Of a stretch of DNA of 64,000 nt, positions 4,441-42,882 are shown in pieces. A program made the position numbers and the translations under genes. The notes beneath the pieces were generated by a model. It was not told the DNA's origin. It saw only the letters and a program-made list of their open reading frames with translations, and made no database searches. Source of the DNA: an uncultured Acidobacteriota bacterium (GTDB lineage Bacteria; Acidobacteriota; Vicinamibacteria; Vicinamibacterales; UBA8438); the NCBI GenBank assembly GCA_913043225.1, contig CAJWLU010000014.1, forward strand, positions 18,903 through 82,902, written 5' to 3'. Every line of letters starts with the position of its first letter. Positions within the stretch are counted from its first letter, which is position 1.

Positions 4441-5078
4441 GGAGCGGTCTCGAGCGCGTCCCAGACCTGTCGGATAAACTCGTCTTCGGGCACCGCACCG
4501 AGCACCTCGACGCGGTCGTTGATAACGGTCTTCGGCACACCGGTGACCCGGTACTGCTGAACGAGCTCCGGATACTCAACCGCCGAGATAGTGGACGCGG
4601 TGATCTGGGGGTGCGCGAGCGCGAGACGCTGGGCAAGGCTGACCGCCTTGGGGCAATGGGGTCAGGTGGGGGTGGCGAAGACCTGAATGTCGACCGGGTC
4701 ATTCAACCCAGAGAGCCGTTCGCGCGTCTCCTCCGAGAGACCGGGGTCTCCGTCCGCCACCAGCAGCACGGCCTCGACCAGCGAGATCAGCTCGTGCCCC
4801 TCCGGAACACCGTAGAACCGGATCCCGGTGTCCTCCGCCCCGACCACCGCGATCGCTGGCGCCCGGCGGATGCCGGCCCGTTCGGTGACCTCGGTGTCGA
4901 GCAACAGGTTGTACTCCTCGACCGTGATCTGGTCAGAAAAGGCCGCCACCCGCTCGACGATCTGTCGCGCGGGCAGGCAGGTGTCGCAGCCAAAGGTCTG
5001 GGTGAAGAACTGGAGAGTAACCGGCGCGGCGAGCGCTTCGAGCGACGCCTCAAGATCGACGGGACCACGAATGTCCAT
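4437..5078 (-). CDS. Protein-disulfide oxidoreductase (two thioredoxin folds, AhpF-NTD/PDO-like), predicted selenoprotein with Sec at TGA 4662-4664
   Basis: First site CDTC. The ORF stops at FATPT-TGA but the frame continues PHCPKAVSLAQRLALAHPQITASTISAVEYPELVQQYRVTGVPKTVINDRVEVLGAVPEDEFIRQVWDALETAP to a TGA overlapping the next ATG, completing the second Trx fold (213 aa). Confidence 0.9.
4634..4650 (-). promoter_or_regulatory. Putative bacterial SECIS hairpin of the PDO gene
   Basis: CAAGGC-GGTCA-GCCTTG perfect 6-bp stem with G-first loop, starting at the 12th nt 3' of the UGA. Confidence 0.75.
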
Positions 5079-5116
5079 CCGCCGATTATCGCACTGGTTC
5101 TCGGACGAGAACCGCG

Positions 5117-5563
5117 CTACTTGAAGAGATCGTCGAATGCCTGGCGCGCGCTGCTGGTACCGGTGGGGGCGACGCGGGCCGAGTGGGTCTGGCGCTCAAC
5201 CGTCACCCGCGGCTCGAAGTAATCGCAGTCGTTCCGAACATCCTTGGGCGCCACGCGGGCCTTGATCGGTTGCTGGCACTCGAACCGGCTGCCTGAATCG
5301 AACGAGGCGCAAAGCGCGCAAACATACAGATCGCTGCCGCACGCCGAACAGCGGCTCTCTGGACCGATCGCCAGGTTCAGGGTCTGGCCACACCGAGCGC
5401 AGCGTACCACGTCGTGGAAACCAGGCATGTTGGGCGTCCGGTGCTCACGGTTGATGACGCTGCGTGGCTTGCCGTCGCCCTTCGGCTTGTTCGGCCTATC
5501 CCGCGTGGTGCGTTCCCGGTCGTCGTCCCGGTAGCCGCGTTGCCGGTATTTGCGTTCGCTCAT
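5117..5563 (-). CDS. Hypothetical Cys-rich (zinc-ribbon-like) protein
   Basis: Basic N-terminus, CxxC x3 plus further Cys (FEC, NDCDYF), ends AFDDLFK; coding-like composition. Confidence 0.75.
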   Translation of the reverse strand: MSERKYRQRGYRDDDRERTTRDRPNKPKGDGKPRSVINREHRTPNMPGFHDVVRCARCGQTLNLAIGPESRCSACGSDLYVCALCASFDSGSRFECQQPIKARVAPKDVRNDCDYFEPRVTVERQTHSARVAPTGTSSARQAFDDLFK

Positions 5564-6114: not shown

Positions 6115-8475
6115 CTAGAAGAGGAGGTTGAGCATCACGCGCGCGGTTCGGGGCAGCGACGGGTGGAAGTGCACGTCTTCGATGCCGCCCACCGGCTCGC
6201 CGGGCAAACGCGACTCGTAGAGGTAGTCGATGTCGGAGACGTCGCTGTCGAGCAAGTTGAAGCCTTCCACGGTGATAGTGGCCCGCTCGTTGAGATTGAA
6301 ACCGATCTCACCGTTCCAGATCGTGGTGGCAGCCGACTTCACCGACGCATCTTCGATGAGCGGTCTGGGACCAAAGTGCCGTAGCCGGAGACTTCCGTGC
6401 ACACGGCGGTTCGGCGCCACCGTGATAGCGCCGGCGATGACCCGATCCAGGGCGCCCGGAATGAAGTCGCCCGCGGGGTCTTCATCCGCGAACCGGGCGC
6501 GAGAGAACGACAGGTCGAGCTCGCCGGTCAGCCAGGACGCGAATCGCACGTAGTTGGTCCACTCGACGCCAAGACGTCGACTCGGCCGGCTGGCCTCGCT
6601 GATGCCGGCGTCGCCGACAAATAGCAGTTCGGAATCGAACGAGAGATACCAGAGCGCCACCGTGGACTGCACGCCAGGCAACCGGACAGTCCGCAGACCG
6701 ATCTCCGCGCCGTTGGCCGGCACCAGCGGATCCTCGCGATCGACCGGATCCCCGCTCACGGGGTCGACCTGCACAGTGGCGACACGGGGGTCGTTGCTGT
6801 GGAAACCGCGCCCGTAGTTCAGATAGAGCTCGGTCCCCTCCCACGGCCCGAGAACGGCGGTTATCTTCGGGCTCACGAGAGCCGCAGTTCCGTCGCCTGA
6901 GTTGAGCGAGTTCTGTGCTGTGACGTCGTAGCGATATACGTCACTGCGCAATCCCAGGGTCGTCCGGAACACGCGCGTCCATTCGATTTCACTCTGAGCG
7001 AAGAGCCCGGCCGTCGTCTGGGTCACCTCGTCATTACGAATAGCATTGGTGCGTCGGCGTGCCACCGTGTTGTAGAGCCCGACCGTGTCGACCACATCGT
7101 TGCGCACCGACACACCGATGGCATTCTCGACCGGGCGGTCGAACACGCGGCCCAGCCGCCGATGCACCATCTTCGCGCCCGAGCTCAGGCGACGACCTTC
7201 CTGTTCGACCTGGTCGCCATTGATCGGGTCTTCGAGGAAGTAGGTGAAGTTCTGGAACAAGTTGAGACCGCCGGTGAGGGCGTACGCCGTGAAGCGGGTC
7301 GACTGATTGGCACCCGAACGGAGCCAGTCGAACGTACCGGAGTAGCGATAGGCGCTGCCGGCATCCGTGTTGTCGATGCCCCCGAAGCGGCCAATGAGCC
7401 CCTGCTCGATCGCCCGGCGCGGAATCTGGTCCGTGGCGTTCCAGTCTCCGCGATACCCCATCCCGGTAATAGAGAAGCCGTTCTGCCGGTCACCCTGGCT
7501 GTAGCGGATGATGCCATTAGCCTTCTCCATGTTGTCCGGGCGCTCCCAGGGCCCGTCGTTCTGCGTGAGCTCCAGCGCCACCAGGAGATTCCCCGGCCCA
7601 ACCTCGGGCGAGACGGCGCCCAGCACACGGCCCCAGCCCTGACCGCCGCCGCTGATGCTGAAGATCGGCCGATCCAAGCTGTTCACGTAATTGATGTTGG
7701 CCGAGCCGGCGGCGGAGAAATCGCCGTGTTCGGCAAAGTACGGTCCCTTCGTGTACTGCACGCCGCTGACCAGCTCCGGGATCAACGCGTTAACGTCAGT
7801 GTAGCCGTGGGCGTGAGCGCCAGACGACTCATTCAGCGGTACCCCGGCCAGGGTCGTCGCGAAGTCGGAGCCGTGGTCTAGGTTGAAGCCTCGGAGGTAG
7901 TACTGGTTGGCCTTCCCTTCGCCGCTGTGCTGGCTCACCACGAACCCGGGCACGGCTTCGAGCACCTCTCCGGGCCGCATAATCGGGCGCGCCTCGAGCT
8001 GGGCCGAGGTGATCGCCCCTACACTGGCCGAGGTGGCAATCCCGACCAGGTTCTCCCTCGGATTCTCCAGGTCGGCGATATTCCGGAACGTTCGGGCACC
8101 CGTGACCACCACGTCGGCCGTGATGCTTAGTGCGAGCCGGGCGTCGACCGTGAGGGTCTGACCCGCGGCCATCTGAACGTCTTCGCGGAACGTCGAAAAA
8201 TTGACCAGGCGGACCACCACTGTGGCAGCACCGGCCGAGACTCCCTCGACCCGGTAGACGCCGACGTCGTCGGTCACGGCCGAGAACGAGCCGTCGTCAG
8301 TTTCCACCCCGACCGTCGCGCCGGGGAGCACGCCCCCTGTATCGTCTGTCACCGTCCCGGTGAGGGTTCCCGCTCCCTGGCCAGCGACCGATGCCACCCA
8401 ACCGAACACACAGCACGCAACCAAAACGCTCCAACGCAAGACGCTGCCCTCCAGTTCAGTGGGCGCACCACGCAC
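6115..8475 (-). CDS. TonB-dependent receptor with N-terminal carboxypeptidase-regulatory-like domain
   Basis: GTVTDDTGGVLPGATV N-domain, plug motif QHSGEGKANQYYLRGFNLDHG, barrel, terminal Phe. Exact start uncertain. Confidence 0.9.
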   Translation of the reverse strand: MRGAPTELEGSVLRWSVLVACCVFGWVASVAGQGAGTLTGTVTDDTGGVLPGATVGVETDDGSFSAVTDDVGVYRVEGVSAGAATVVVRLVNFSTFREDVQMAAGQTLTVDARLALSITADVVVTGARTFRNIADLENPRENLVGIATSASVGAITSAQLEARPIMRPGEVLEAVPGFVVSQHSGEGKANQYYLRGFNLDHGSDFATTLAGVPLNESSGAHAHGYTDVNALIPELVSGVQYTKGPYFAEHGDFSAAGSANINYVNSLDRPIFSISGGGQGWGRVLGAVSPEVGPGNLLVALELTQNDGPWERPDNMEKANGIIRYSQGDRQNGFSITGMGYRGDWNATDQIPRRAIEQGLIGRFGGIDNTDAGSAYRYSGTFDWLRSGANQSTRFTAYALTGGLNLFQNFTYFLEDPINGDQVEQEGRRLSSGAKMVHRRLGRVFDRPVENAIGVSVRNDVVDTVGLYNTVARRRTNAIRNDEVTQTTAGLFAQSEIEWTRVFRTTLGLRSDVYRYDVTAQNSLNSGDGTAALVSPKITAVLGPWEGTELYLNYGRGFHSNDPRVATVQVDPVSGDPVDREDPLVPANGAEIGLRTVRLPGVQSTVALWYLSFDSELLFVGDAGISEASRPSRRLGVEWTNYVRFASWLTGELDLSFSRARFADEDPAGDFIPGALDRVIAGAITVAPNRRVHGSLRLRHFGPRPLIEDASVKSAATTIWNGEIGFNLNERATITVEGFNLLDSDVSDIDYLYESRLPGEPVGGIEDVHFHPSLPRTARVMLNLLF

Positions 8476-8740: not shown

Positions 8741-11446
8741 ATGCCTGCCCGACTCATCTTCTTACTTGGCGTCCTTTTCGTGTTCATGGTCGTGCCGTCG
8801 GCCGTGAACCTGCTCACCGAGTGGTTCTGGTTCGGTGAAGTCGGCTACACAGCCGTCTTCATCCGCACCCTGACGGCACGCGCCACCCTGGGCGCCCTGG
8901 TGCTACTAGCAACCTTCGCACTCGTGGCGTTCAACCTGCGCACGGCGCTGGGTCAGGTCACTCGGCCCTACATGCTCTTTCCAGGCGGCGGCGACATCCA
9001 GCCGATCGTGCTCAATCAGCGCCAGCTCCAGCTGATGGGCACTGGCGTGGCCGGACTCGTGGCGGTGTTTCTGGGTCTGTTCGCCTCCAACGAGTGGCTG
9101 ACCTGGCTGCAGTTCCAGCAACAGGTGCCCTTCGGGCAGACCGACCCCTTGTTCGGACACGACGTCGCGTTCTACGTGTTCACCCTGCCGTTCCTAGATC
9201 TGCTGCGCTATCTGGCCATGGCGGCCCTCATCCTCTCGACCATCGGGTCGGGAGCCGCCTACGTGGTGTCCGGTGCTCTGGCGTTAGACCCGGCGCGGGG
9301 CCTAATCGTGGCCGAGCCCGCCCGCAAGCACCTCGGCCTCCTGCTCGCGGTGTTCTTCGTCCTACTGGCCTGCGGCGCGTATCTGGATGTCCCCCGGCTG
9401 CTAACGACACCGGGCGGGGTCGTGCACGGCGCGTCGTATGTAGACGCCGTCATGCGAGTGCCGATCCATTGGGTGTTGATGGGCGTTGCCTTGCTCGGGG
9501 CCGGTCTCTCGACCATAAGCGCCTTCACGGCCCGCAACACGCCGGCGATGGCCGCCGTGGGTCTCTACGCCCTGGTGACGGTGGCGGGCAATCTGGGCTC
9601 GGTCGCGCTCCAGCGTCTGGTGGTGACCCCCGACGAGCAGCAGCGGGAAGCCCCTTACATCGCCCACACCATCGCGGCCACGCGACAGGCATTCGGACTG
9701 GAAGCGGTCGAGGAGCGCGAACTCTCAGGCGACGAGATCCTGACGCTCGCCGATATCGAGAACAACACGGACACCATCAACAACGTCCGGCTCTGGGACC
9801 ATGAGCCGCTGCTCGACACATTCGGCCAGATTCAGGAGATCCGGACCTACTACGACTTCGCGTCGGTCGACAACGACCGGTATCTGATCGATGGCGAGTA
9901 TCGCCAGATCATGCTGTCGAGCCGGGAGCTCAACTCAGACAGCCTGCCCAACCGATCCTGGGTTAACGAACGCTTGCAATACACCCACGGATTCGGCGTC
10001 GCGATGGGCCCGGTCAACCAGGTGACCCAGGAGGGGCTGCCAGTACTGTTCATCCAGGATCTACCACCTACCTCGTCGGTGGACCTCCAAGTCGACCAGC
10101 CCAGTATCTACTTCGGCGAGCTGTCGAACGACTACGTCATCGTCAACACCAACACCGACGAGTTCCACTACCCGGAGGGCGAAGATAACGTCTCAACCCG
10201 CTACGACGGAAACGGCGGGGTGCCACTGTCAGGACTCATCCGGCGGATGCTCTACGCCGTGCAGTTCCAGGCCTACGAGATCCTGGTGAGTGGTCAACTC
10301 AGCGGCGAGAGCCGCATCATCTACCACCGGAACATCCTCGACCGCGTGACCACAGTCGCGCCGTTCCTGCGCTACGACAGCGATCCGTATCTGGTGATCT
10401 CCGAGGGGCGCCTCGTCTGGATGGTCGACGCCTACACCGTGAGCGACCGCTATCCCTACGCCCAGCCGACGGCAACCGGGGTCAACTACATCCGCAACGC
10501 GGTGAAGATCGTTATCGACGCCTACGACGGCACCATGACGTTCTACCTGGCTGACGCGGAAGACCCGGTAGCCCGGACACTGCAAGCTATTTTTCCGGAA
10601 CTGCTGCGGCCGCTCGACGACATGTCGGAGGACCTGCGGCGGCACATCCGCTATCCGGAAGGGCTGTTTACGCTCCAGACCGAGATCTACTCGACCTTCC
10701 ACATGACCAACCCGGCGGTCTTCTACAACCGTGAAGACCAGTGGGAAGTACCGGTCATCGACGGCGAGGAGATGGAGCCGTACTACACGATCATGCGGCT
10801 GCCCGGAGAACCGCGGGCCGAGTTCATCCAGATGCTCCCATTCACGCCGCGGGGGCGGAACAACATGGCCGCATGGATGGCGGCCCGCAGCGACGGTGAC
10901 CAGTACGGCAAGATCCTGGTCTTCCAGTTCCCGAAGCAGAAGCTGGTGTTCGGACCCAGCCAGGTCGTGGCCCGCATCAACCAGGACCAGGAGATCTCGC
11001 CGCAGATCACCCTCTGGAACCAGCAGGGCTCGGAGGTCATCCAGGGCACGCTCCTAGTCGTGCCGATCGAGGGAGCGCTCCTCTACATCCGACCACTGTA
11101 TCTGCGAGCGTCGGGCGGGCGGATCCCGGAGTTGCGGCGCGTCATCGTCGCCTACCAGAACCAGATCGTGATGGAAGAGACGCTCGACCAGGCGCTGGGG
11201 CAGCTGTTCCGCTCAGGGGCACCGGCCGCGCCACCGTTGGCGCCCGAGGCAATTCTCGCCAACCAGGAGACAGTGATCCCGGCGCCCGATCTTCCAGCAA
11301 CGTCGGATGACGATCCGCTGGTGAGCCAAGCCAGCGTCCACTATCAGCGCGCGCTGGCAGCGCAGCGCAACGGCGACTGGTCGCTTTATGGTGAAGAAAT
11401 CGAGCGACTGGGCGAAATCTTGGAGCAGCTGAGCTCGGGGCCGTAA
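8741..11446 (+). CDS. UPF0182 family membrane protein
   Basis: EWFWFGEVGY, DPLFGHDVAFYVFTLP, NVRLWD, YTHGFG, NYIRNAVK, PYY motifs; ATG 8741 preferred. Confidence 0.93.
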   Translation: MPARLIFLLGVLFVFMVVPSAVNLLTEWFWFGEVGYTAVFIRTLTARATLGALVLLATFALVAFNLRTALGQVTRPYMLFPGGGDIQPIVLNQRQLQLMGTGVAGLVAVFLGLFASNEWLTWLQFQQQVPFGQTDPLFGHDVAFYVFTLPFLDLLRYLAMAALILSTIGSGAAYVVSGALALDPARGLIVAEPARKHLGLLLAVFFVLLACGAYLDVPRLLTTPGGVVHGASYVDAVMRVPIHWVLMGVALLGAGLSTISAFTARNTPAMAAVGLYALVTVAGNLGSVALQRLVVTPDEQQREAPYIAHTIAATRQAFGLEAVEERELSGDEILTLADIENNTDTINNVRLWDHEPLLDTFGQIQEIRTYYDFASVDNDRYLIDGEYRQIMLSSRELNSDSLPNRSWVNERLQYTHGFGVAMGPVNQVTQEGLPVLFIQDLPPTSSVDLQVDQPSIYFGELSNDYVIVNTNTDEFHYPEGEDNVSTRYDGNGGVPLSGLIRRMLYAVQFQAYEILVSGQLSGESRIIYHRNILDRVTTVAPFLRYDSDPYLVISEGRLVWMVDAYTVSDRYPYAQPTATGVNYIRNAVKIVIDAYDGTMTFYLADAEDPVARTLQAIFPELLRPLDDMSEDLRRHIRYPEGLFTLQTEIYSTFHMTNPAVFYNREDQWEVPVIDGEEMEPYYTIMRLPGEPRAEFIQMLPFTPRGRNNMAAWMAARSDGDQYGKILVFQFPKQKLVFGPSQVVARINQDQEISPQITLWNQQGSEVIQGTLLVVPIEGALLYIRPLYLRASGGRIPELRRVIVAYQNQIVMEETLDQALGQLFRSGAPAAPPLAPEAILANQETVIPAPDLPATSDDDPLVSQASVHYQRALAAQRNGDWSLYGEEIERLGEILEQLSSGP

Positions 11447-13878: not shown

Positions 13879-15659
13879 TGAACATCGGCGCAGCCCACCG
13901 GGGCCATCTCCCTCGCGCGGCCTCAGGGCTAACGCTGCTGACGCTGGGTCTCTGGGCCTCGGCCGCCGGAGCCCAGAACCTGGACTGGTCGAGCCAGAAC
14001 CTCAACCTCGACAACAACCGGTTCGCCGCGGTGGACGAGGTCGACCGCGGGAACGTGGACCGGCTCGTCGAATCCTGGTCGTACGAGGTCGGCCCCACCG
14101 ACAACATCAGCCAGACCACGCCCGTGGTCATCGACGGGATCATGTATCTGCACTCACGGTCGACGCTGTTCGCGCTCGACGCGACCACGGGTGAAGAGTT
14201 GTGGCAGGCCGTGCTCGACGCCGGTGACCCGGGCGGCAGCCCTGTGCGTGGACCGACATTCGCCGACGGCAATGTGTACGCCTATCGAGGCGCCGACCTC
14301 TATGCCATGAACGGGAGGACGGGTGAACCGGTCGAAACGTTTGGCGACGGAGGGGTCCTGCCAGTCGTCAGCGCGGCGCTCCAGGCGAAGTATCCAGACG
14401 ACTTCCCACCGAATCTGGACCCGGTCAGCATCGGCTATCGCATCACCACTCCGCCGGCGTATCACGACAGCACAATGTATGTAGCGGCGGCGCTGTCGGA
14501 GGGACACATCCCGGGCGGGTTGGTCATCGCCACCGACTCTGACACCGGCGCGGTGAAGTGGGTGTTTAACACCATCCCGCAGGGCCCACAGGACTCGGGG
14601 TGGGAGATTGCACGGGACACCTGGGGGGACGGGGCTCGCGCCGGCGGCGGCATCTGGACGCAACCGGCGGTCGACACCGACCTAGGACTCGTCTATGTCA
14701 ACGCCGGGAACCCCTCACCGGACTACGATGGTTCGGCGCGGCATGGCATCAACCTCTTCACCAATGCCACCATCGCTCTGGATCTCGAGACCGGCGAGCT
14801 GCGGTGGTACTACCAGGCCGTACACCACGACCTGTGGGACTGGGACCACGTAACCGGCCCGGTCCTGTTCGACGTGCCGGATCCCGAGGGCGGCATCCTC
14901 AAGGGCGTGGCGGCGGCCGGCAAGAACTGCCTGTTCTACATGTGGGACCGGGAAACGGGCGAGCCGCTCCATCCGATGGTGGAAACCATCGTGCCGACCG
15001 AGACCGACGTCCCCGGTGAGCAGGCCTGGCCCACGCAGCCGATACCCTACAACGCGGCCGGCGTGCCAATGACGCCGCTCTGCGCAACGTTCGTGGATCT
15101 TGAAGATCCCGAGCAGATGGCCCGTTCGAGCCAGCTCTACTCTCCCTACTGGATCAGCAAGGAGGTCATCGTGCCTCACGGTGGGTCGAGCTTCGGGTCG
15201 CCATCGTTCAGCCCCAACACCGGCCTCGTGTATGTGACAGGGAAGAACGGCGCCATCGCCCTGGTGGTCAAGCCGGTGGGCGACTCGCTCGAACCTGGTC
15301 CGGACAGTCGGGGACACACAGACAGCTACGAGACGATCGACCGGATCATGGAAGGCTTCCCTCCGGAGGTGACCGTCTCGGCCTACGACCCGCTGACCGG
15401 GGAGCAGACCTGGCAAGCGATTCTGCCGGCCGAGACCGCCATCGGCGCCAGCGGCAACTTGGTCACGGCCGGCGACCTCGTGTTCCAGGGCGTAGAGGAC
15501 GGGGGCTTCTACGCCCTCGATGCCCGCACCGGTGACGAGCTGTTCGAGTACGAGGCGCCCCGACCGATCCGGTCGAGCCCGATGACCTATCAAGTCAACG
15601 GTAAGCAGTATGTGACCGTGGTCGCCACCAACACCGTCATCACCCTAGCGCTGCCATAG
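13878..15659 (+). CDS. PQQ-binding beta-propeller protein (quinoprotein dehydrogenase-like)
   Basis: [20 protein letters not shown] repeats, [38 protein letters not shown] coupling with the upstream gene. Confidence 0.9.
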
Positions 15660-15699
15660 CCGCTGCTCGTCGCCTCCGCGACCAGACAGGGAGGCCTCC

Positions 15700-15822
15700 T
15701 TGCTCAACGTCATTCCCAGCCGTGTCACCGCCCGGATGAACGGCGACTTCATCGTTTTCCTGATCGCCCTGCGGACCAATAAGCCCTGGAAGCTGCACAA
15801 GTGGCTGCCGGTGGGCCGCGCC
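15700..15822 (+). pseudogene. N-terminal relic of a DUF4188-like protein, in frame with the downstream amidohydrolase
   Basis: GGAGG then [38 protein letters not shown] resembles the DUF4188 N-terminus as I recall it. Confidence 0.55.
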
Positions 15823-28237: not shown

Positions 28238-29992
28238 GTGCGCTCGATCTCATTCACGACGCGGTGGCAACTCGTCACACTGGCATTGGCCGTCACGGCA
28301 GTGGCCGGTCCGCTGGCCGCCCAGATGCGTCTTCCAGAGCTCAGGTTCTCACCGCTCACCGAGACCGACGCCGTCCATGCCGGCAACACAGCCCGCGTCA
28401 GCCTGGATGTCACGCTGAACGCCGGATTCCACGTTAATTCGGACAGACCGCTCGACCCAACGCTGATCCCGACGGTGCTGACGCTCGAGCCTCCCGAGGG
28501 GATCTCCCTGGACGGCCTGGCTTTTCCAGAGCCAATCCTGGTGGGCGTGGCCGGCATCGAGGAACCCCTCGCAGTCTTCGAAGAGGAGTTCCGGATCGGC
28601 GTGAGTCTCGATCTGGCCGGCGATCTAGCCTCGGGCCTCTATGCCGTGCCCGGCAACCTCCGCTGGCAAGCGTGCAACGACACGATGTGTTTCGCGCCCA
28701 AGAACACCCCGGTGCAGTTCGAGCTCACGGTGGTGTCGTCGGACACGGCACTGGCCACCGTGCACGACAACTTTTTCGGCGGTCTGACGGAAGCCGACCT
28801 AAGTGACGCGCCGTCACCGGCACCGGTGGCGGCCATGGTCGACAACGTCTCGGTCGTCGCCACCTTGGGCGAGTTCGAGGTGCTCGGGAGCACCGGCGGC
28901 TACCTCAACACCGAGGATTTCCTCGGGTTCATCGAAGCAGCCGAGTCTGGCGAAGGCAATCAGGGGTGGTTCGAGGGCCGCGGACCTTTAGCCATCCTGG
29001 CGCTCATCCTGGTGGGAGGTCTGGCGCTGAATTTGACACCCTGCGTACTGCCAATGATCCCGATCAACTTAGCCATCATCGGGGCCGGCACCCGCGCCGG
29101 GTCCCGCGTGCGCGGTTTCGCCCTCGGCGGGACCTACGGGCTGGCTATGGCGCTCGTCTACGGCATTCTCGGACTGGTGGTTATCCTGACCGCCGGCACG
29201 TTCGGCACGATCAATTCCTCACCCTGGTTCAACGTCAGCATAGCGGCGCTGTTCGTAGTGCTGGGCCTGGCGATGTTCGACGTCCTGGCGATCGATTTCT
29301 CAAGCCTACAGTCGAAGCTCACGATGGGAGACAACGAGAACGGCTCGTTCATCGTGGCGTTCGGCATGGGGGCGGTCGCAGCGCTTCTGGCCGGCGCCTG
29401 CGTGGCCCCGGTCGTGATTCAGGTCATCGTGTTCTCGAGCAATCTCTATGGCACCGGCACCACCGTCGCGCTGTTGCTACCCTTCTTCCTCGGCATCGGC
29501 ATGGCGTTGCCCTGGCCGATCGCCGGCGCCGGTCTCTCGTTGATGCCGAAGCCGGGACCGTGGATGGTACATGTCAAGCATGCCTTCGGCGTCTTCATCC
29601 TCGGCACGGCCGTCTACTACGGGTACATCGGCTACGGGCTGTTCGCCCAGCGATGGGTCGATCCGACCGAGGTGGCTGACAGCGTGCAGGAACTGCTGGA
29701 CGAGGGTTGGTACGCCTCACTCGCGCAAGGACTCGAGGTGGCCGAGGCCGAAGACAAGCTAGTGCTAGTGGATATGTGGGCAACCTGGTGCAAGAACTGC
29801 CTCACGATGGACCAGACCACGCTCAAGGCCCCCCCAGTCGAGGCTGGTCTCGAGGACTACGTCAAGGTCAAGTTCCAAGCCGAGGATCTTGACGCATCGC
29901 CCGCCCGTGAGGTCTTGCAGCACATGGAGGGCATCGGGCTGCCCACGTACGCCATCCTGCGCAAGCGGGCCGAGCCAGCGGCAGGCAACTGA
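28238..29992 (+). CDS. dsbD: DsbD-like thiol:disulfide interchange protein (DsbD-alpha + CcdA + thioredoxin)
   Basis: QACNDTMCFAP, LNLTPCVLPMIP, GACVAP, WATWCKNC. Confidence 0.88.
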   Translation: MRSISFTTRWQLVTLALAVTAVAGPLAAQMRLPELRFSPLTETDAVHAGNTARVSLDVTLNAGFHVNSDRPLDPTLIPTVLTLEPPEGISLDGLAFPEPILVGVAGIEEPLAVFEEEFRIGVSLDLAGDLASGLYAVPGNLRWQACNDTMCFAPKNTPVQFELTVVSSDTALATVHDNFFGGLTEADLSDAPSPAPVAAMVDNVSVVATLGEFEVLGSTGGYLNTEDFLGFIEAAESGEGNQGWFEGRGPLAILALILVGGLALNLTPCVLPMIPINLAIIGAGTRAGSRVRGFALGGTYGLAMALVYGILGLVVILTAGTFGTINSSPWFNVSIAALFVVLGLAMFDVLAIDFSSLQSKLTMGDNENGSFIVAFGMGAVAALLAGACVAPVVIQVIVFSSNLYGTGTTVALLLPFFLGIGMALPWPIAGAGLSLMPKPGPWMVHVKHAFGVFILGTAVYYGYIGYGLFAQRWVDPTEVADSVQELLDEGWYASLAQGLEVAEAEDKLVLVDMWATWCKNCLTMDQTTLKAPPVEAGLEDYVKVKFQAEDLDASPAREVLQHMEGIGLPTYAILRKRAEPAAGN

Positions 29993-32699: not shown

Positions 32700-32945
32700 T
32701 GGGGCGGGAACCCCACAGCCCCGCTGACGCACGCCGGCCGCGGCAGTCACCGAACCCTCCTGCACCTGAGTCACCAATAAACCGTCCTCAACGCCGAGGT
32801 AATCGGCTGAGTGCGAAGAGAGTTCCTGCACATTCACCCCAAGGCGCGGGCGACTGACACCAGCCACGTTTAAGTCGAACGTGTAGTCACGGTCCTCGTC
32901 CGGCACGAATCCACAGATCATTTCCGACAGCCGGTCAATTACCAA
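32700..32945 (-). pseudogene. Truncated PDZ-domain protein relic
   Basis: RPRLGVNVQELSSHSADYLGVEDGLLVTQVQEGSVTAAAGVR is the first half of a PDZ domain, then similarity is lost; no convincing start. Confidence 0.6.
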
Positions 32946-33299: not shown

Positions 33300-33746
33300 A
33301 TGGAGCCGCTCAGTCTGCCGCTCGACTATACCGCCATCGAGCGGATCCTGCCTCACCGGTATCCCTTCTTGCTCGTTGACCGCATCACCGAATTCGAGGA
33401 GGACAAGCGGATCGTTGGGATCAAGAATGTCTCGCTCAACGAACAGTGCCTGGCTCGTCGCCCAGGCGAGCGGCCAGCGCTGCCGCCGACGATCCTCACG
33501 GAGGCGGTGGCCCAAGTTGGGGCCATCCTGATCCTGGCCAAGCCGGAGAACCGCGAGAAGCTAATCTACATCGCCGGAATCGAGCGGGTCCGGTATCGGC
33601 GACCCGCCTACCCCGGCGACGTCGTCAACATCGAGGTCAACGTCAAACGACTCCGGCGCCGGATGGGCCAGCTCCATGGCACCGCGACTACGGGGGGTGA
33701 GGTGGTACTGGAAGGCCGGATGACGTTCGCCCTCGGCACCGCCTGA
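33300..33746 (+). CDS. FabZ-like hot-dog fold protein (catalytic His absent)
   Basis: LPHRYPFLLVDRI, GIKNVSLNE, EAVAQ, PGD; the usual GHFP segment reads LARRPG. Confidence 0.85.
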   Translation: MEPLSLPLDYTAIERILPHRYPFLLVDRITEFEEDKRIVGIKNVSLNEQCLARRPGERPALPPTILTEAVAQVGAILILAKPENREKLIYIAGIERVRYRRPAYPGDVVNIEVNVKRLRRRMGQLHGTATTGGEVVLEGRMTFALGTA

Positions 33747-33901: not shown

Positions 33902-34081
33902 ATGGGACAAAACCCTGTGGGCCCGGAAGTGGACCAAGAGATGAGGGATCGGTTCATCGAGCGCCGGAGGCTCATAAAGCAAATAGAGGAGGACGCGGCT
34001 AGATGCCTCAAAGTGGACGTCAACAATCCTGAAGACCCGGTCTTCATAGATAAGGATGAAGATGAGGCGGGGCAGAGATAA
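33902..34081 (+). CDS. Possible 59-aa small protein in a lower-GC patch
   Basis: MGQNPVGPEVDQEMRDRFIERRRLIKQIEEDAARCLKVDVNNPEDPVFIDKDEDEAGQR; below the ORF-track cutoff. Confidence 0.3.
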   Translation: MGQNPVGPEVDQEMRDRFIERRRLIKQIEEDAARCLKVDVNNPEDPVFIDKDEDEAGQR

Positions 34082-34289: not shown

Positions 34290-34964
34290 ATGGGTTCGAA
34301 GAAGAATCGGAATCGAGCGGCGCCAACTCCGGTCGCCGAGCCACCGTCGAACGGGGCCCCGTGGCCGCTGATCGCCGTGGTGGCTGTGGCGCTGGCCGGG
34401 GGCGGCATCTACATGGCCACTTCGTCCTCGGGTAGTGGGGACACTGACGGGGCCCAGACGGCGTCTGCACAAATGGCCACCGAGACCGCAGCGCCGGCCG
34501 CTCCGTCGAGCACGACCGCGGCGCCAGGCGCCGCCGCGCCGGCGGAAGCGGAGCCAACGACGACCGCGGCTCGCACGCCACTCCCCGACGACCTGCCGAT
34601 GCCTCCGTTACCGTATGTGCCTCGGGCTGCGGCTGGACCGCCGGAACTGATGCAGCAGGCCTACGTCTTCGCGGCCAAGAACCCGCACATCCTTGACTAT
34701 GTGCCTTGCTACTGCGGCTGTGGCCAGACGGACGGCCACATTGGCAACACCGACTGCTTCGTCGATCGACGGGCGCCGAACGGCGCCGTGGAGGCGTGGG
34801 ACACCCACGGCATGACTTGAAGCCACTGCCTAGCTGTCGCGCGTGACGCGATGCAGATGAACGCCCTGGGCGCTTCCCCCTCCGATATCCAGCGAGCCGT
34901 CAAGACCAAGTACGCTTCCCAGTCGGCCTACGCCACCCCGACGCCTCCGGCGCCGGCTAACTAG
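34290..34964 (+). CDS. PCYCGC-motif membrane-anchored protein, predicted selenoprotein with Sec at TGA 34818-34820
   Basis: TM anchor, A/P/T linker, YVPCYCGC...GH...DCF...WDTHGMT-TGA-SHCLAVARDAMQM...KTKY...TPTPPAPAN-TAG (224 aa). TGA sits at the first Cys of the family's HGxxCxxC motif. Confidence 0.88.
34836..34852 (+). promoter_or_regulatory. Putative SECIS hairpin of the PCYCGC gene
   Basis: GTCGCG-CGTGA-CGCGAT stem-loop starting at the 16th nt 3' of the UGA. Confidence 0.6.
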
Positions 34965-35041: not shown

Positions 35042-36562
35042 GTGTCTCCGTCGCGCCCCCGACCCAAGGCGGCCGAGCTTGGCCGGCTGTTCGGTTCCGT
35101 CCGAGCCGGTGTCTATCTCGGTCCGCTGGAGGGTGGTGGTCCCCCAACTGGCGTAAACCCGCATCTGCAACTGATGTTCGGCTACGACCCGACGGCGTCT
35201 CCGCCGCCGGTGCACCCCTTTTCTGCCGATCGTTTTGTCGACCCGCAGGCGCGCGACGCCTTTTTCGCTGAGCTGACCCGCGACGGCGCTGTCGCCGACT
35301 ACCTGCTCCGATTGCGGCGAGCCGACGACACCACCGTCTGGGTCGAAGTTACCGCCACGCTGCATCCGGATCCAGACGGCGGTCCGGCGCAGATCGACGC
35401 TATCCTGCGCGACGTCAGCGAACGACGGAAGCTCGAAGACCGAGGGCGCAACCTCAGCCAACAGTTCTTGCAGTCCGAGAAGATGGCTGCTCTCGGGCAA
35501 ACCGTGTCTGGCGTGGCGCACGAACTCAACAATCCCCTCGCGACGATCCTTACCTGGGCCGAACGTCTCGCCAGCCGCAACGTCGATACCGGGACGCGCC
35601 ACGGTCTCGAGACCATCCTGAGCGAAGCCGAACGAGCCGCCAAGATCGTCAGGAACTTGCTGACGTTCGCGCGGAAGCGCAACACAACCCGCGCGCTCGT
35701 TGATGTGAACGTCATCGTGCGAGACACCCTCGCGTTACGCGCTTACGAGCAGCGGGTCTCCAATGTCACGACGATCGATGCCCTAGCGGGTGGCTTGCCG
35801 CAGGTCTTCGCCGATCCGCATCAGGTCAAGCAAGTGTTGCTCAACCTGGTGATCAACGCCGAGCAGGCGATGCTTGCAGCGCACGGACGGGGCACGCTGG
35901 TGACCCGCACCTGGTACGACGACGAAGCCGAGATGGTGATGCTGGAGATCAGCGACGATGGCCCGGGCGTACCCAACGAGGCGCAGAGTAAGATCTTCGA
36001 TCCCTTCTTCACCACCAAGGCAGTAGGCAAGGGCACTGGCCTCGGTCTCACGATGGCATATGCAATCGTCGAGGAACACGGTGGCCAGATCTGGCTGCGC
36101 TCCGGCGCAGAGGGCGCGTCGTTTTTCGTGTCTTTTCCGGCAGCGTCGGGCCACCACCGTCCTGCCGCGCCGCCGGTACCGCCGCCGCCCGCCACAGCCG
36201 GCTCGGCTGTGCTCGTGGTGGAGGACGAACCGGCCCTCGCGACCGCCGTGACCGACGCCCTTCGTGACGCCGGCTATCAGGTGGCGCACGCCGAAGATGG
36301 CCAGGCGGGGCTCGAGCGTATCCGGCAGGACAGATTCGATCTGGTGATCTGCGACCTAAAGATGCCAAGGCTAGACGGACCAGCGTTCTTTCGGGTGCTC
36401 TCGAAGGAGCAGCCGGGGCTGGCTCGGCACGTAGTCTTCGTCACCGGCGACGTGGCCGGGACGGACGCGGAACGGTTCCTGACCGAAAGCGGGTGCCGTT
36501 GGCTTCCGAAACCGTTCCGTCTAACGGATCTGCTGCGCGTCACCGAGGACGTGCTGCGTTGA
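35042..36562 (+). CDS. Hybrid sensor histidine kinase (PAS-HisKA-HATPase-REC)
   Basis: QSEKMAALGQ...VAHELNNPL, QVLLNLVINA, DDGPG, FDPFFTTK..GTGLGL, C-terminal REC (VVEDE, DLKMP, KPF). Confidence 0.93.
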   Translation: MSPSRPRPKAAELGRLFGSVRAGVYLGPLEGGGPPTGVNPHLQLMFGYDPTASPPPVHPFSADRFVDPQARDAFFAELTRDGAVADYLLRLRRADDTTVWVEVTATLHPDPDGGPAQIDAILRDVSERRKLEDRGRNLSQQFLQSEKMAALGQTVSGVAHELNNPLATILTWAERLASRNVDTGTRHGLETILSEAERAAKIVRNLLTFARKRNTTRALVDVNVIVRDTLALRAYEQRVSNVTTIDALAGGLPQVFADPHQVKQVLLNLVINAEQAMLAAHGRGTLVTRTWYDDEAEMVMLEISDDGPGVPNEAQSKIFDPFFTTKAVGKGTGLGLTMAYAIVEEHGGQIWLRSGAEGASFFVSFPAASGHHRPAAPPVPPPPATAGSAVLVVEDEPALATAVTDALRDAGYQVAHAEDGQAGLERIRQDRFDLVICDLKMPRLDGPAFFRVLSKEQPGLARHVVFVTGDVAGTDAERFLTESGCRWLPKPFRLTDLLRVTEDVLR

Positions 36563-39802: not shown

Positions 39803-41062
39803 CTAGGCGAACAGACGCAGCGGCTCGTAGTTACCCTTCAGAATTGCCGCGGAGTCCTTGTAGCCCAGCCACTGCTGGATCATGCTGGCGTAGACCCGCC
39901 GGAAGTCAGTCGTCATCTTCAAGTTGCCGTCATCCAGATCGGTGAGGCTGGGGTGCGCACCGTGGAGGCCACCCTCTACGCCGGACCCGATGACAAACAT
40001 CGGCGTGGCAGTGCCGTGGTCCGTACCCAGGCTGGCGTTCTCTTCAACGCGCCGGCCGAACTCGGTGAACATCATGATGGCTACGTCGTCCACCCGATTG
40101 AGCCGCTGCAGATCCTCGACGAACCCCCGAATCGCATCGGCCGTGTAAGCCAGCAGACGCGCATGTGGATCCGCCTGGTGGACGTGGGTGTCGAACGAGT
40201 TTCCGGCGTAACTGACGTAATAGAGACGGGTCGGCATCTCCGCCGCGATGAGCGCTGCCACGCGCCGGAGCTGCGGCGAGAGCCCGCCGATCCCATAGTC
40301 GACCGGGGTGCTGTAGGCTGCCGACGCCTCGCGCACGAAGGCTGAACTCTGCTCGGCGTTGCTGGCGGTGGCGGCAAGGAAGTCGAGAGTGGAATTACTG
40401 CCCGTGTTCACGGCCATGTCGTCCAGCGCCGACTTCTCACCGTCCGAGCCCTCGCGTCGGAAGCTACGCGGGTCGTTAAACACCAACGGCTGGTGGTGGC
40501 GGGCTCGCACCGCCAGCGACTGCCGGGTGCCGATGTTCACGATCATGTTGCCCTGCGCGTCATGGTCGTACACGCCATCGGCCACACGGCCGAGCCAGCC
40601 CAGCGGCTCTCCGCCGTTCGGGACGCCGGTATGCCAGAAGCCCATGGACGAGAAGTGGGACAGGCTTGGATTGTCGTAGCCGCAGCCATGCACCACGCCC
40701 ATCATGCCGTCCTTGTACAGGCGTTCGAACCCGACCATCGAGGGATGTAGGCCGTATCCGTCCTCGATCTTGATCGCCTCGTTCTCGCGGATACCTAGAT
40801 TTGGCCGCACCCGATAGTAGGTGTCGCTGCCATACGGCACGACCGTGTTGAGCCCGTCGTTACCACCAGACAGCTCAACCACCACGAGGATCCGCTCGGG
40901 ATGCGCCTCCATGCTGCTACCGGTCAGCGCCTGGGCCGTCAGTGCCTCTGTGGTACGGCTCATCAGCACCGGGAGACCGGCAGTGACGCCAATCCCGTAG
41001 AGTCCGCGTCGCAGAAACTCGCGCCTGGAACAGGCGCACGAATCGGAAGGACGGATGATCAT
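39803..41062 (-). CDS. DUF1501 family protein (Tat-exported)
   Basis: SRREFL, LSGGNDGLNTVVP, SHF, FDTH, EFGRRV.EN...GTDHG, TTDFRRVYA. Confidence 0.9.
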   Translation of the reverse strand: MIIRPSDSCACSRREFLRRGLYGIGVTAGLPVLMSRTTEALTAQALTGSSMEAHPERILVVVELSGGNDGLNTVVPYGSDTYYRVRPNLGIRENEAIKIEDGYGLHPSMVGFERLYKDGMMGVVHGCGYDNPSLSHFSSMGFWHTGVPNGGEPLGWLGRVADGVYDHDAQGNMIVNIGTRQSLAVRARHHQPLVFNDPRSFRREGSDGEKSALDDMAVNTGSNSTLDFLAATASNAEQSSAFVREASAAYSTPVDYGIGGLSPQLRRVAALIAAEMPTRLYYVSYAGNSFDTHVHQADPHARLLAYTADAIRGFVEDLQRLNRVDDVAIMMFTEFGRRVEENASLGTDHGTATPMFVIGSGVEGGLHGAHPSLTDLDDGNLKMTTDFRRVYASMIQQWLGYKDSAAILKGNYEPLRLFA

Positions 41063-41079
41063 GAGAGTCTCCTTGACGG

Positions 41080-42882
41080 CTACGCCACTTGATACTCAGG
41101 CGTGCTCAGCACCAAATACAGCAACGACCGCAATGCACCTTCGACCTGCGGGCTCGGGGCAGGGAGCCGGTCCGCACCTAACTCGCTGCGCAACCGGTCC
41201 ACCAGCACCTGACGGCCCGCTGGCGCCAGGGGCGCGCGAAGAAAACGACGCTGGTAGTAGTCGACGATCGACTCGACGGTCGTCGCACCAGCCTCGGTCA
41301 CCATAGCCGCAAGGTCCAGGTCGGCCGGGTGCCGGGGCACGAGCTTCAGCCGGTCGTAGGCCATGATGTAGCCCATGTAACCGCCGTAGCGTGTGTTGTA
41401 GTCCTCGTCCCGGTCAGCAATCATGCTCGACTCCGCGTCGCCCTGCTGGGTCGCGGCGGTGATGTTCAGCCCCTGCTGGAGCCGACGCTCCACCTGCGCG
41501 TAGATACCCGGGGTGGCCCGGTCGGGCGCCCAGAATCCGTCGGTGTCTGGGAAGAGCACGTTGCGGAAGAGGTTGCCGCGCTCAAGCAGCAACGCGGGCG
41601 TGATCCAGGTGCGGCCCCCAGCCCAGCCTGCGACGTTCGGCGGATTGAACAGCGTCTGTCCCAAGCCGGCGGTCAATCGGTTGAAGTCCGGGATGGTCGG
41701 CAGTCTTTCGAGACCCAGTTTTCGGTAGGTAGAAACGACCAGTTGCACCGGACTCTTGACCTGGGTAGCGTTGGACGCTGGGCTGTAGAAATCTCGGGAT
41801 AGCAAGATCTGACGGAGCAGTGGCTGTAGCTCGTAGTTCGCCTCCCGGAGCGTGTCCCCCAGCGCCTCGCGGATCACGTCGTCCAGATCTTCCCGCACCA
41901 GATAGCGATAGAGCTTGGCCGAGATGAACTCCGCCGTGACCGGGGTCTCGAGGACGATATCGATGATGTCCTCGCCGTTCAGGTTGTCTGTCCGACCCAG
42001 AAAGGTCTTCTCGCCATCGTCGTGGGTAGCGGCATCGAACTTAAACTCGATCGCGTCGTTCGTCCAGCCAGTGAACGCGCGTGACGCCTCCCGAATGTCC
42101 TGCTCGCTGTAGTTGCCCACGCCCATCGTGAACAGCTCGAGCAATTCGCGTCCGAAGTTCTCGTTCGGGTGCCCTTTGCGGTTCTCGCCGTTGTCCAGAT
42201 AGACCAGCATGGCGGGATCGGTGAGGATTCCGAGCAGCAAGTCACGAAAGTTCCCGGCAGCATTCGCCCGCAGCATCTCGTTCTGCTGATGCATCATGCG
42301 GGTATCGCGCACTTTCGTGTTGCCGGTGGCGAAGTGGCCATGCCAGAACAGCGTGAGCTTCTCCTCGAGCGGCCGGCGCGTGGTCAACATCCGCTCGCCG
42401 AACCAGATCGCCAGCCGCTGGGTCTCGATGGCGTTGGAGCGCAGCCCGTAGAAAAACTTGTTGACCACCGGCTGCAGCCGACGACTTTCACCCTCGGGGA
42501 GCACCGCCACGCCCATCGAAGAACCGCTTTCGCGAGCGATTCGCACCGCGTCGGCGCGGCTCTTGGGGAACGGATCCATCTCCGGATCCCAGATCGGAGA
42601 AGGGTCGAAAGCTGGGGTCAGGCTGTTGTCGACTGATTCGAAGTCGACCAACCAGGCCACCGCCGCCTTTGGGCTCATGGCTGCCAGGCGTTCAATCTCG
42701 TCTGGGGTCGCGCCGAATCCGGCGCGCTCGATGAGATGCGCCGCCTTGTCATAGTCCCACTCCGCGGCGGTGATGGGAGACAAGTCGTTGACCCAGTCCT
42801 CCGATCCAGCCCCCGCAGCCAGGACCCCAATGCCGGCCGCCACCGAAAGCACACACGCCGCGATCCAACCATTGATCTTCAT
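41080..42882 (-). CDS. DUF1800 family protein
   Basis: AAHLIERAGFG, EKLTLFWHGHFAT, PAMLVYLDN, PNENFGRELLELFTMG, PPNVAGW; usual partner of DUF1501. Confidence 0.9.
   Translation of the reverse strand: MKINGWIAACVLSVAAGIGVLAAGAGSEDWVNDLSPITAAEWDYDKAAHLIERAGFGATPDEIERLAAMSPKAAVAWLVDFESVDNSLTPAFDPSPIWDPEMDPFPKSRADAVRIARESGSSMGVAVLPEGESRRLQPVVNKFFYGLRSNAIETQRLAIWFGERMLTTRRPLEEKLTLFWHGHFATGNTKVRDTRMMHQQNEMLRANAAGNFRDLLLGILTDPAMLVYLDNGENRKGHPNENFGRELLELFTMGVGNYSEQDIREASRAFTGWTNDAIEFKFDAATHDDGEKTFLGRTDNLNGEDIIDIVLETPVTAEFISAKLYRYLVREDLDDVIREALGDTLREANYELQPLLRQILLSRDFYSPASNATQVKSPVQLVVSTYRKLGLERLPTIPDFNRLTAGLGQTLFNPPNVAGWAGGRTWITPALLLERGNLFRNVLFPDTDGFWAPDRATPGIYAQVERRLQQGLNITAATQQGDAESSMIADRDEDYNTRYGGYMGYIMAYDRLKLVPRHPADLDLAAMVTEAGATTVESIVDYYQRRFLRAPLAPAGRQVLVDRLRSELGADRLPAPSPQVEGALRSLLYLVLSTPEYQVA

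Follow-up and report, generated by a model that had tools for sequence, protein, structure and literature searches.

A mis-annotated selenoprotein gene of the catalogued PCYCGC/CYCXC family at a conserved Vicinamibacterales locus

Introduction

In the window, i.e. the whole stretch of 64,000 nucleotides of acidobacterial DNA that was analysed, a gene of the PCYCGC family carries an in-frame TGA, raising the question of whether this codon ends a 176-residue protein or is read as selenocysteine (Sec), and of what the resulting protein might do. A preliminary description, made from the letters alone, had proposed a membrane-anchored, extracytoplasmic selenoprotein with a UxxC motif. Here we address the coding status of the TGA, the family to which the protein belongs, and its candidate functions.

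The PCYCGC reading frame continues through an in-frame TGA

The ORF called with table 11 spans 34290-34820, encodes 176 aa and ends at ...WDTHGMT-TGA; as had been described, the frame runs on to a TAG at 34962-34964, yielding 224 aa when the TGA is read as U. The PF13798 (PCYCGC) profile matched residues 117-219, thus across the UGA, at an E-value of 7.5e-27 and 94.5 bits versus a gathering cut-off of 25. The gene is laid out as follows.

34290..34964, plus strand: PCYCGC/CYCXC-family selenoprotein gene, 224 aa with UGA read as Sec
34368..34424, plus strand: hydrophobic segment aa 27-45 after a basic N-terminus, putative N-in/C-out membrane anchor
34425..34574, plus strand: Ala/Pro/Thr-rich linker aa 46-95, variable in sequence and outside the modelled folded core
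34704..34721, plus strand: PCYCGC motif (C140, C142, C144), after helix 1
34737..34808, plus strand: H150, C156, beta-hairpin aa 158-170 and H173; this beta-hairpin is short in NF041379-type members
34818..34820, plus strand: in-frame TGA, codon 177 (Sec177), first residue of U-S-H-C, directly before the helix aa 178-192
34821..34964, plus strand: part after the UGA, with C180, two helices, a terminal TPTP and the TAG stop
34836..34852, plus strand: upper stem-loop of a bacterial SECIS, GTCGCG-CGTGA-CGCGAT, 6 bp with the loop CGUGA

The Cys/His/Sec set that had been claimed was recovered in full (C140, C142, C144, H150, C156, H173, U177 and C180), and the PF13798 pattern, PCYCGC plus three further conserved Cys, is represented in it by C140, C142, C144, C156, U177 and C180. 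The N-terminal anchor proposed earlier likewise held, as the hydrophobic stretch behind a basic N-terminus (best 19-residue Kyte-Doolittle mean of 1.9, at aa 27), with both features present in 30 of the 30 orthologues printed and the topology being a prediction. Given this anchor, the linker and the annotation of PCYCGC homologues as (lipo)proteins, the protein would be located extracytoplasmically, in the periplasm. Between 33700 and 35200, no sequence resembling a sigma-70 promoter was detected, and the sole terminator-like match was at chance level. The RNA-library runs yielded low-depth Logan contigs only, and since these cover coding and non-coding stretches without distinction, they do not show expression; a single RNA-library contig that bridges the TGA (X2) has the codon unchanged, which is no proof of transcription.

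Comparative evidence for UGA177 as a selenocysteine codon

The two cues on which Sec had been proposed, the open frame behind the TGA and a nearby hairpin, are both present, but neither goes beyond chance when taken alone. Among the long TGA-ended frames of this genome (64% GC), 197 of 532 stay open for at least 47 codons, 31 of them with a codon score as good as that of the PCYCGC gene, so open-frame length was dropped as stand-alone evidence; GC3 was 0.81 after the UGA versus 0.79 before it, and the codon log-odds 0.045 versus 0.121. The hairpin, found at 34836-34852 as described, starts at the 16th base after the UGA, yet its folding energy is ordinary against shuffled sequences (z -0.57 for 34819-34860) and was dropped as stand-alone evidence as well. 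The bSECIS consensus in the excerpted text of PMC13188914 comprises a 3-9 nt loop, a 4-16 bp stem, a G in the first two loop positions, a spacing of 16-37 nt and an MFE of at most -7.5; the values here are a 5-nt loop, 6 bp, 21 nt from UGA to loop and -10.3 kcal/mol with the lower stem, the 17-nt hairpin core alone giving -6.9 kcal/mol.

The comparison among relatives carried more weight. A homologue is present in 48 of 61 related genomes, and at the codon in question the 30 best relative loci have TGA in 13 cases and TGC/TGT in 17. Adding 20 further regions gave a set of 22 TGA and 30 Cys copies, and a GTDB contig scan of 376 relatives, of which the best 80 were kept (mostly titled Vicinamibacterales or Acidobacteria), gave TGA in 39 and Cys in 41; these 52-copy and 80-locus sets come from one collection and probably overlap, and the kin within them are not independent. 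In these two overlapping sets, the full 6-pair stem with an NG[GU] loop was found in 22/22 and 39/39 TGA copies, and the same stem-loop in 0/30 and 2/41 Cys copies. Across 13 Sec orthologues, synonymous differences numbered 0 in 72 codon comparisons within the hairpin, which covers just six codons, one of them Met, versus 58/228 downstream and 23/144 upstream. Compensatory covariation was absent among the Sec orthologues, the stem being invariant save for G-U/A-U at the base pair. The exact hairpin motif occurs once in the genome, at the PCYCGC gene. Downstream of the UGA, C180, A184, G194, Y208 and T216-P219 are invariant in 29 Sec and Cys orthologues. When the Sec/Cys state was placed on a 60-row tree, 8 changes were obtained, at least 5 of which are forced by well-supported branches, with long-branch caveats; because of these repeated changes, the hairpin can be said to track TGA across separate lineages. 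As selA was above cut-off in 56 of 61 genomes, most carriers of the Cys form among them, loss of the pathway does not account for these forms. This genome itself, 96% complete, contains selA, selB and selD above cut-off and a tRNA-Sec(UCA) gene (selC).

The TGA/Cys pairing, the invariant C-terminal motifs and the TGA-linked conservation of the hairpin thus argue that the TGA is a real Sec codon. Judged from these sequence comparisons, UGA177 is almost certainly decoded as Sec through SelB and the coding-region hairpin, giving a 224-aa, N-terminally anchored protein whose compact Cys/His/Sec domain would sit on a flexible linker in the periplasm. That the TGA is instead a true stop (a nonsense allele, pseudogene or sequencing error), leaving a 176-aa truncated form, would be in line with the ordinary energy of the hairpin and with the 114 of 120 database homologues that end at the UGA codon, although gene callers account for the latter. 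This alternative is scarcely credible, since many genera and families share the TGA at a single codon, followed by invariant residues and accompanied by a TGA-linked hairpin, since the genome encodes the Sec machinery, and since a short-subfamily lineage combines TGA at the equivalent aligned position with a different hairpin. The preliminary description had named a search for the sel genes and a homologue alignment as checks; the first found the machinery, and the second found TGA paired with Cys at the first position of CxxC in syntenic orthologues and conservation on both sides of the UGA. What it had listed as counter-evidence, i.e. missing sel genes, no relatives with TGA or a decayed downstream part, was in no instance observed.

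The long-hairpin subfamily of a catalogued selenoprotein family

The doubt on novelty voiced in the preliminary description was justified. A table in a 2026 review, as excerpted, contains the entry 'CYCXC family protein (OS_HP4), PF13798, UxxC' (PMC13188914), the OS_HP4 UxxC entry also stands in PMC9312934, and both reviews, in the portions available, cite a 2007 Olavius paper for OS_HP4. The available main text of that paper names OS_HP1-3 only, with no 'HP4', and 'HP4' is likewise absent from the available text, supplements excluded, of the 2008 GOS paper and the 2022 Haft preprint. The PCYCGC motif is described in the available part of PMC13068155, and the literature retrieved by full-text search, in the portions available, gives no function for PCYCGC, PF13798, NF041379 or CYCXC. 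With one Sec, UxxC and a PF13798 domain, the protein fits the tabulated CYCXC/OS_HP4 family. It is therefore confirmed as the product of a real, mis-annotated selenoprotein gene of an already catalogued family.

On the NCBIfam model NF041379 ('CYCXC family (seleno)protein', OS_HP4_CYCXC), the protein scored 66.7 bits, below the strict equivalog cut-off of 90, because it belongs to a subfamily with a longer beta-hairpin: long-form Cys homologues scored 60-68 bits, and three short acidobacterial members 104-111. The three short forms have TGA at the same aligned site, two of them with a different hairpin, and the profile-profile alignment of the short and long subfamilies reached 99.9%. These scores, the shared TGA site and the alignment place the protein in a long-hairpin PF13798 subfamily of the catalogued selenoprotein family. 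It shares with CYCXC/OS_HP4 (NF041379) the same domain, the CxCxC...H...C...H...UxxC set, the aligned Sec site and an exported or anchored N-terminus, but differs in a beta-hairpin longer by 12 residues before UxxC, the terminal TPTP, a transmembrane anchor without lipobox, and another SECIS sequence. PCYCGC, WDxHG, CxxC and TPTP are all found, too, in the PF13798 (lipo)proteins of Bacillota and Burkholderiales, where the members examined have Cys (P0233) in place of Sec; the Bacillota members are lipoproteins, often in plasmid metal-resistance clusters, whereas the gene studied here occupies a conserved chromosomal locus. Of 301 genomes sampled from the phylum, 70 contained PF13798 (a tally that includes the unpublished G083), and its representatives in the library number 1773 at E 0.001.

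For annotation, the consequence is that, of the 120 closest homologues in the database, 114 stop at the UGA and so lack 47 residues including UxxC. The Sec form is now documented in the long-hairpin subfamily, outside the reach of the NCBIfam model, and Sec and Cys orthologues form a clean series across genomes that have, almost without exception, retained selA. As the family has no known function, testable leads are gained too, namely copper/heavy-metal and Dsb neighbourhoods in two unrelated phyla and a possible CcmH-like fold. To a specialist in selenoproteins, all of this would come as no surprise.

Gene neighbourhoods of PCYCGC loci

The following genes in the window recur at related loci.

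28238..29992, plus strand: DsbD (DsbD_N, DsbD_TM and thioredoxin-like domains), syntenic, possible reductant
33300..33746, plus strand: FabA/FabZ-like dehydratase, upstream, in 74/80 loci
35042..36562, plus strand: PAS-histidine kinase-receiver hybrid, directly downstream on the same strand, its domains matched in 80/80 loci

The Vicinamibacterales locus is orthologous in its Sec and Cys forms, with the fabZ-like gene upstream and the hybrid kinase, a FliA-like sigma factor and a sigma-54 regulator downstream. Of the 69 related loci with a complete upstream flank of 5 kb, 52 have DsbD. A shared operon of DsbD and the PCYCGC gene was ruled out by an opposite-strand lipid-kinase gene in between, DsbD lying 4.3 kb off; the earlier suggestion of DsbD as the reductant is hence speculative at this locus, but gains from Burkholderiales plasmid clusters, where DsbD does stand beside the PCYCGC gene.

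At 30 more distant acidobacterial loci, the 117 nearest neighbours were mostly housekeeping genes, with the exceptions of DsbB and a DsbA-like gene directly downstream (L204), CopC/CopD (L206), a redoxin (L205), Fur/FTR1 (L208) and RND exporters (L046, L216 and L220), and at none of the 30 did DsbD rank first or second among the genes on either flank. The hybrid kinase ranked first or second downstream at 8 of 11 more distant loci. Outside Acidobacteriota, neighbourhoods were taken from plasmid records, i.e. 12 annotated loci hand-picked from 24 and 45 matches for taxonomic spread, and as plasmids are enriched for metal-resistance islands, the context seen there is biased. In the Bacillota plasmid loci, a heavy-metal P-type ATPase lay within 7 kb in 5/6 and an ArsR/SmtB regulator in 4/6, while DsbA with a disulfide oxidoreductase was found in 2/6, one of which had CcdA too. 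An RND exporter, a copper-binding protein and DsbD shared the cluster in 5/5 Burkholderiales plasmid loci, accompanied variously by a multicopper oxidase (3), TlpA-type reductases (2), SCO, CueR and a c-type cytochrome; these five loci probably represent a single island family. The Priestia H11 and Thermomicrobium plasmid loci showed neither a metal nor a Dsb context.

Several further genes in the window were noted. A copper P-type ATPase (TIGR01511, 595 bits; G000 C14:17938-19746) overlaps the window start at 1-844 on the minus strand, 33 kb from the PCYCGC gene. A remnant of a PDZ-domain gene lies at 32727-32903 (minus strand), the gene being intact there in a relative (39% identity over 59 aa). 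A 59-aa ORF of lower GC (54%) at 33902-34081 (plus strand), upstream of the PCYCGC gene, had no match in 109 related loci or elsewhere in the genome.

Residue conservation, predicted structure and the relation to CcmH

A model of aa 96-224 built from a 115-row alignment reached a pLDDT of 95.8 and comprises a helix at 118-130, the PCYCGC loop, the beta-hairpin 158-170, U177 and helices at 178-192 and 197-211. In that alignment C140, C142, C144, H150, C156 and C/U177 are invariant, with H173 kept in 113 rows and C180 in 111, figures that overstate conservation, as 98 rows were chosen by a Cys-motif filter and 4 without the second Cys were added by hand. Among 150 unfiltered representatives, CxxC was intact in 109, 29 ended where the UGA would be, 5 had the first Cys only, 5 were without CxCxC, and 2 were others.

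A PDB sequence search with the protein and the family profile found no solved relative and nothing better than E 0.23, and Foldseek gave no match at E 0.001 for the models of either the long or the short form. The top Foldseek match for both was the CcmH redox domain (2HL7 and 2KW0), at E-values of only 2.7 and 3.1. VIA-align to CcmH 2HL7 gave Z 4.2 (rank 2, rmsd 3.4, 75 aligned) for the first model and, to CcmH, Z 3.6 (rank 7, rmsd 4.1, 66 aligned) for that of the short subfamily, both within the noise band, the best Z of 4.4 and 5.5 being to a designed protein. These matches are weak and neither establish nor rule out any known fold. At the profile level, aligning the PCYCGC profile by hhalign with CcmH domains from these genomes gave a probability of 82% with a pairwise E of 1e-5, a score that 0 of 60 column shuffles reached; in this register CxCGC pairs with CxCG, and the Sec site with a conserved Cys. 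The short subfamily gave a probability of 41% in another register; as this subfamily had been predicted to match better but matched worse, a one-to-one correspondence of five Cys with those of the Cys-rich CcmH was rejected as not robust. The helix pair alone carries much of the CcmH profile signal, and neither a PF03918 (CcmH) match at E 0.01 nor an LRCxxC motif was found in the PCYCGC protein.

CcmH is a membrane-tethered three-helix thiol oxidoreductase (PMC3884852, available text). As modelled, the PCYCGC protein would resemble the CcmH/CcmL N-terminal redox domain (PF03918; 2HL7, 2KW0) in its three helices, the Cys motif after helix 1, a G-x-S-x-x-D/E-I...Y helix pair and a predicted membrane-tethered, periplasmic placement; it differs in the missing LRCxxC and in the extra His and Cys residues and the hairpin, the structural match is weak (Z 3.6-4.2), and no ccm genes were found among the neighbours scanned. 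The models thus suggest a CcmH-like fold as a lead, not a result. A function to match, as a free-standing, divergent CcmH-like thiol reductase for the maturation of cytochrome c or another CxxCH or metalloprotein, could draw on the hhalign score with its alignment of Cys motif and Sec site, on the lead of 2HL7 and 2KW0 in both Foldseek lists, and on a c-type cytochrome, TlpA and SCO in two Paraburkholderia clusters. It appears improbable to us, since the short subfamily fares worse in both comparisons, much of the signal comes from the helix pair, the LRCxxC motif is missing, no ccm gene is among the 117 neighbours of the 30 loci, and the genome has its own CcmH domain elsewhere, in a long frame.

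Most relatives contain Cys-rich CcmH domains with CxCG..C...C..C instead of LRCxxC (L195, at G000 C5:184719-185150 on the minus strand, and L174-L194). These stand at the end of long frames, mostly of 770-950 aa, which are probably CcmF fusions. A weak extra CcmH match in G053 (C25:14890-15162) spans a TGA.

Candidate functions of the PCYCGC protein

A non-thioredoxin thiol-disulfide redox module that repairs envelope thiols under copper or soft-metal stress, fed by DsbD or CcdA, is the function that we tentatively propose, a reading that falls somewhat short of probable. In such a scheme, Sec177, at the start of a helix, would be the attacking nucleophile and C180 a dispensable resolving residue, with the CxCxC/H150/C156/H173 cluster as a structural or auxiliary metal or disulfide site. 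The domain might then reduce or repair thiols of the envelope that copper or other soft metals have damaged, and be re-reduced through electron import of the DsbD/CcdA type. DsbC/DsbD-linked repair of copper damage is described for E. coli (PMC4624244, available text), and by analogy the PCYCGC protein may act under copper or soft-metal stress. The redox module is favoured because 5 of the 150 representatives keep the first Cys and lose the second, with the Sec site preceding a confidently modelled helix (178-192), because DsbD and TlpA occur in Burkholderiales clusters alongside RND exporters and copper-binding proteins, DsbA and CcdA in Bacillota, and DsbB with a DsbA-like gene at L204, and because both models have the CcmH redox domain as their top Foldseek match. 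Weighing against it are the housekeeping or signalling genes nearest to the gene at this and most acidobacterial loci, the weakness of those structural matches, the probable origin of the Burkholderiales loci from one island family, and the heavy-metal ATPase link in Bacillota, which fits metal binding equally well.

Metal binding is in fact a close rival, and it and redox repair are not mutually exclusive. As a soft-metal binding protein, i.e. a chaperone, buffer or sensor of Cu(I), Cd, Zn or Hg, the protein would use its eight conserved potential ligands as one or two metal sites, Sec would raise the affinity for soft ions, and metal would be handed to or from exporters, DsbD merely keeping the ligands reduced. 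This is possible in the light of those ligands, of the P-type ATPases and ArsR/SmtB regulators of the Bacillota plasmids, of the RND, copper-binding and CueR neighbours in Burkholderiales, and of the CopC/CopD genes and RND exporters adjoining L206 and L046, L216 and L220, respectively. However, the residue lost in some members is the second Cys of CxxC, as befits a resolving Cys, the copper ATPase of this genome is far away at the window start, and any thiolate site for metal would, in an oxidising compartment, depend on a reductant in either case. The kinase gene directly downstream on the same strand, here and in most Vicinamibacterales loci examined, would fit a periplasmic redox or metal sensor signalling to the adjacent PAS hybrid histidine kinase; yet this kinase has only cytoplasmic PAS, HisKA, HATPase and receiver domains, and the link is absent outside Vicinamibacterales, so that plain synteny suffices and the sensor is very improbable.

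Returning to the redox module and its metal-binding rival, both might be set in a wider evolutionary frame that we regard as rather unlikely, namely that the PF13798/CYCXC proteins form a distant, free-standing offshoot of the three-helix redox fold of CcmH, which gave up cytochrome c maturation and would now act under copper stress, either as a non-thioredoxin envelope reductase supplied by DsbD/CcdA or by trapping soft metals; at one orthologous Vicinamibacterales locus, the attacking residue would have alternated repeatedly between Sec and Cys, the same SECIS being kept or lost each time. Were this true, an uncharacterised selenoprotein family would have a function, and a natural Sec/Cys orthologue series would be available with which to test what selenium adds outside the cytoplasm.

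Other selenoprotein candidates and paralogues

A second hidden selenoprotein gene lies in the window at 4440-5195 on the minus strand, with a TGA at 4664-4662, UxxC and a 6-bp hairpin; it encodes a protein disulfide oxidoreductase of a known family (TIGR02187, 235 bits versus a cut-off of 185). A crude scan of the genome (G000) for in-frame TGAs, an incomplete one as the PCYCGC gene was not among its candidates, gave further candidates with hairpins at C11:65567(-), C17:68051(+), C50:988(-), C10:105621(+) and C42:3783(+), which from their motifs may be peroxiredoxin-, OsmC- and AhpC-like; the hairpin loop of the C11:65567 candidate likewise starts with CGUG. SelD (G000 C10:21255-22178, L004) lies inside a 788-aa open frame with a long N-terminal extension, which we presume to resemble a flavin oxidoreductase, and has Cys, not Sec, in its motif. 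Three tandem TGA-bearing paralogues of the PCYCGC gene, divergent at about 40% identity, were found in a relative (L036 of G003, at 6373-7113, 9200-9919 and 14973-15713); they are in repeated cassettes, each behind a similar gene of 430-660 aa and adjoining an RND gene, and retain the SECIS stem with the loop CGUGU. A DUF1800-DUF1501 gene pair occupies 39803-42882 of the window on the minus strand.
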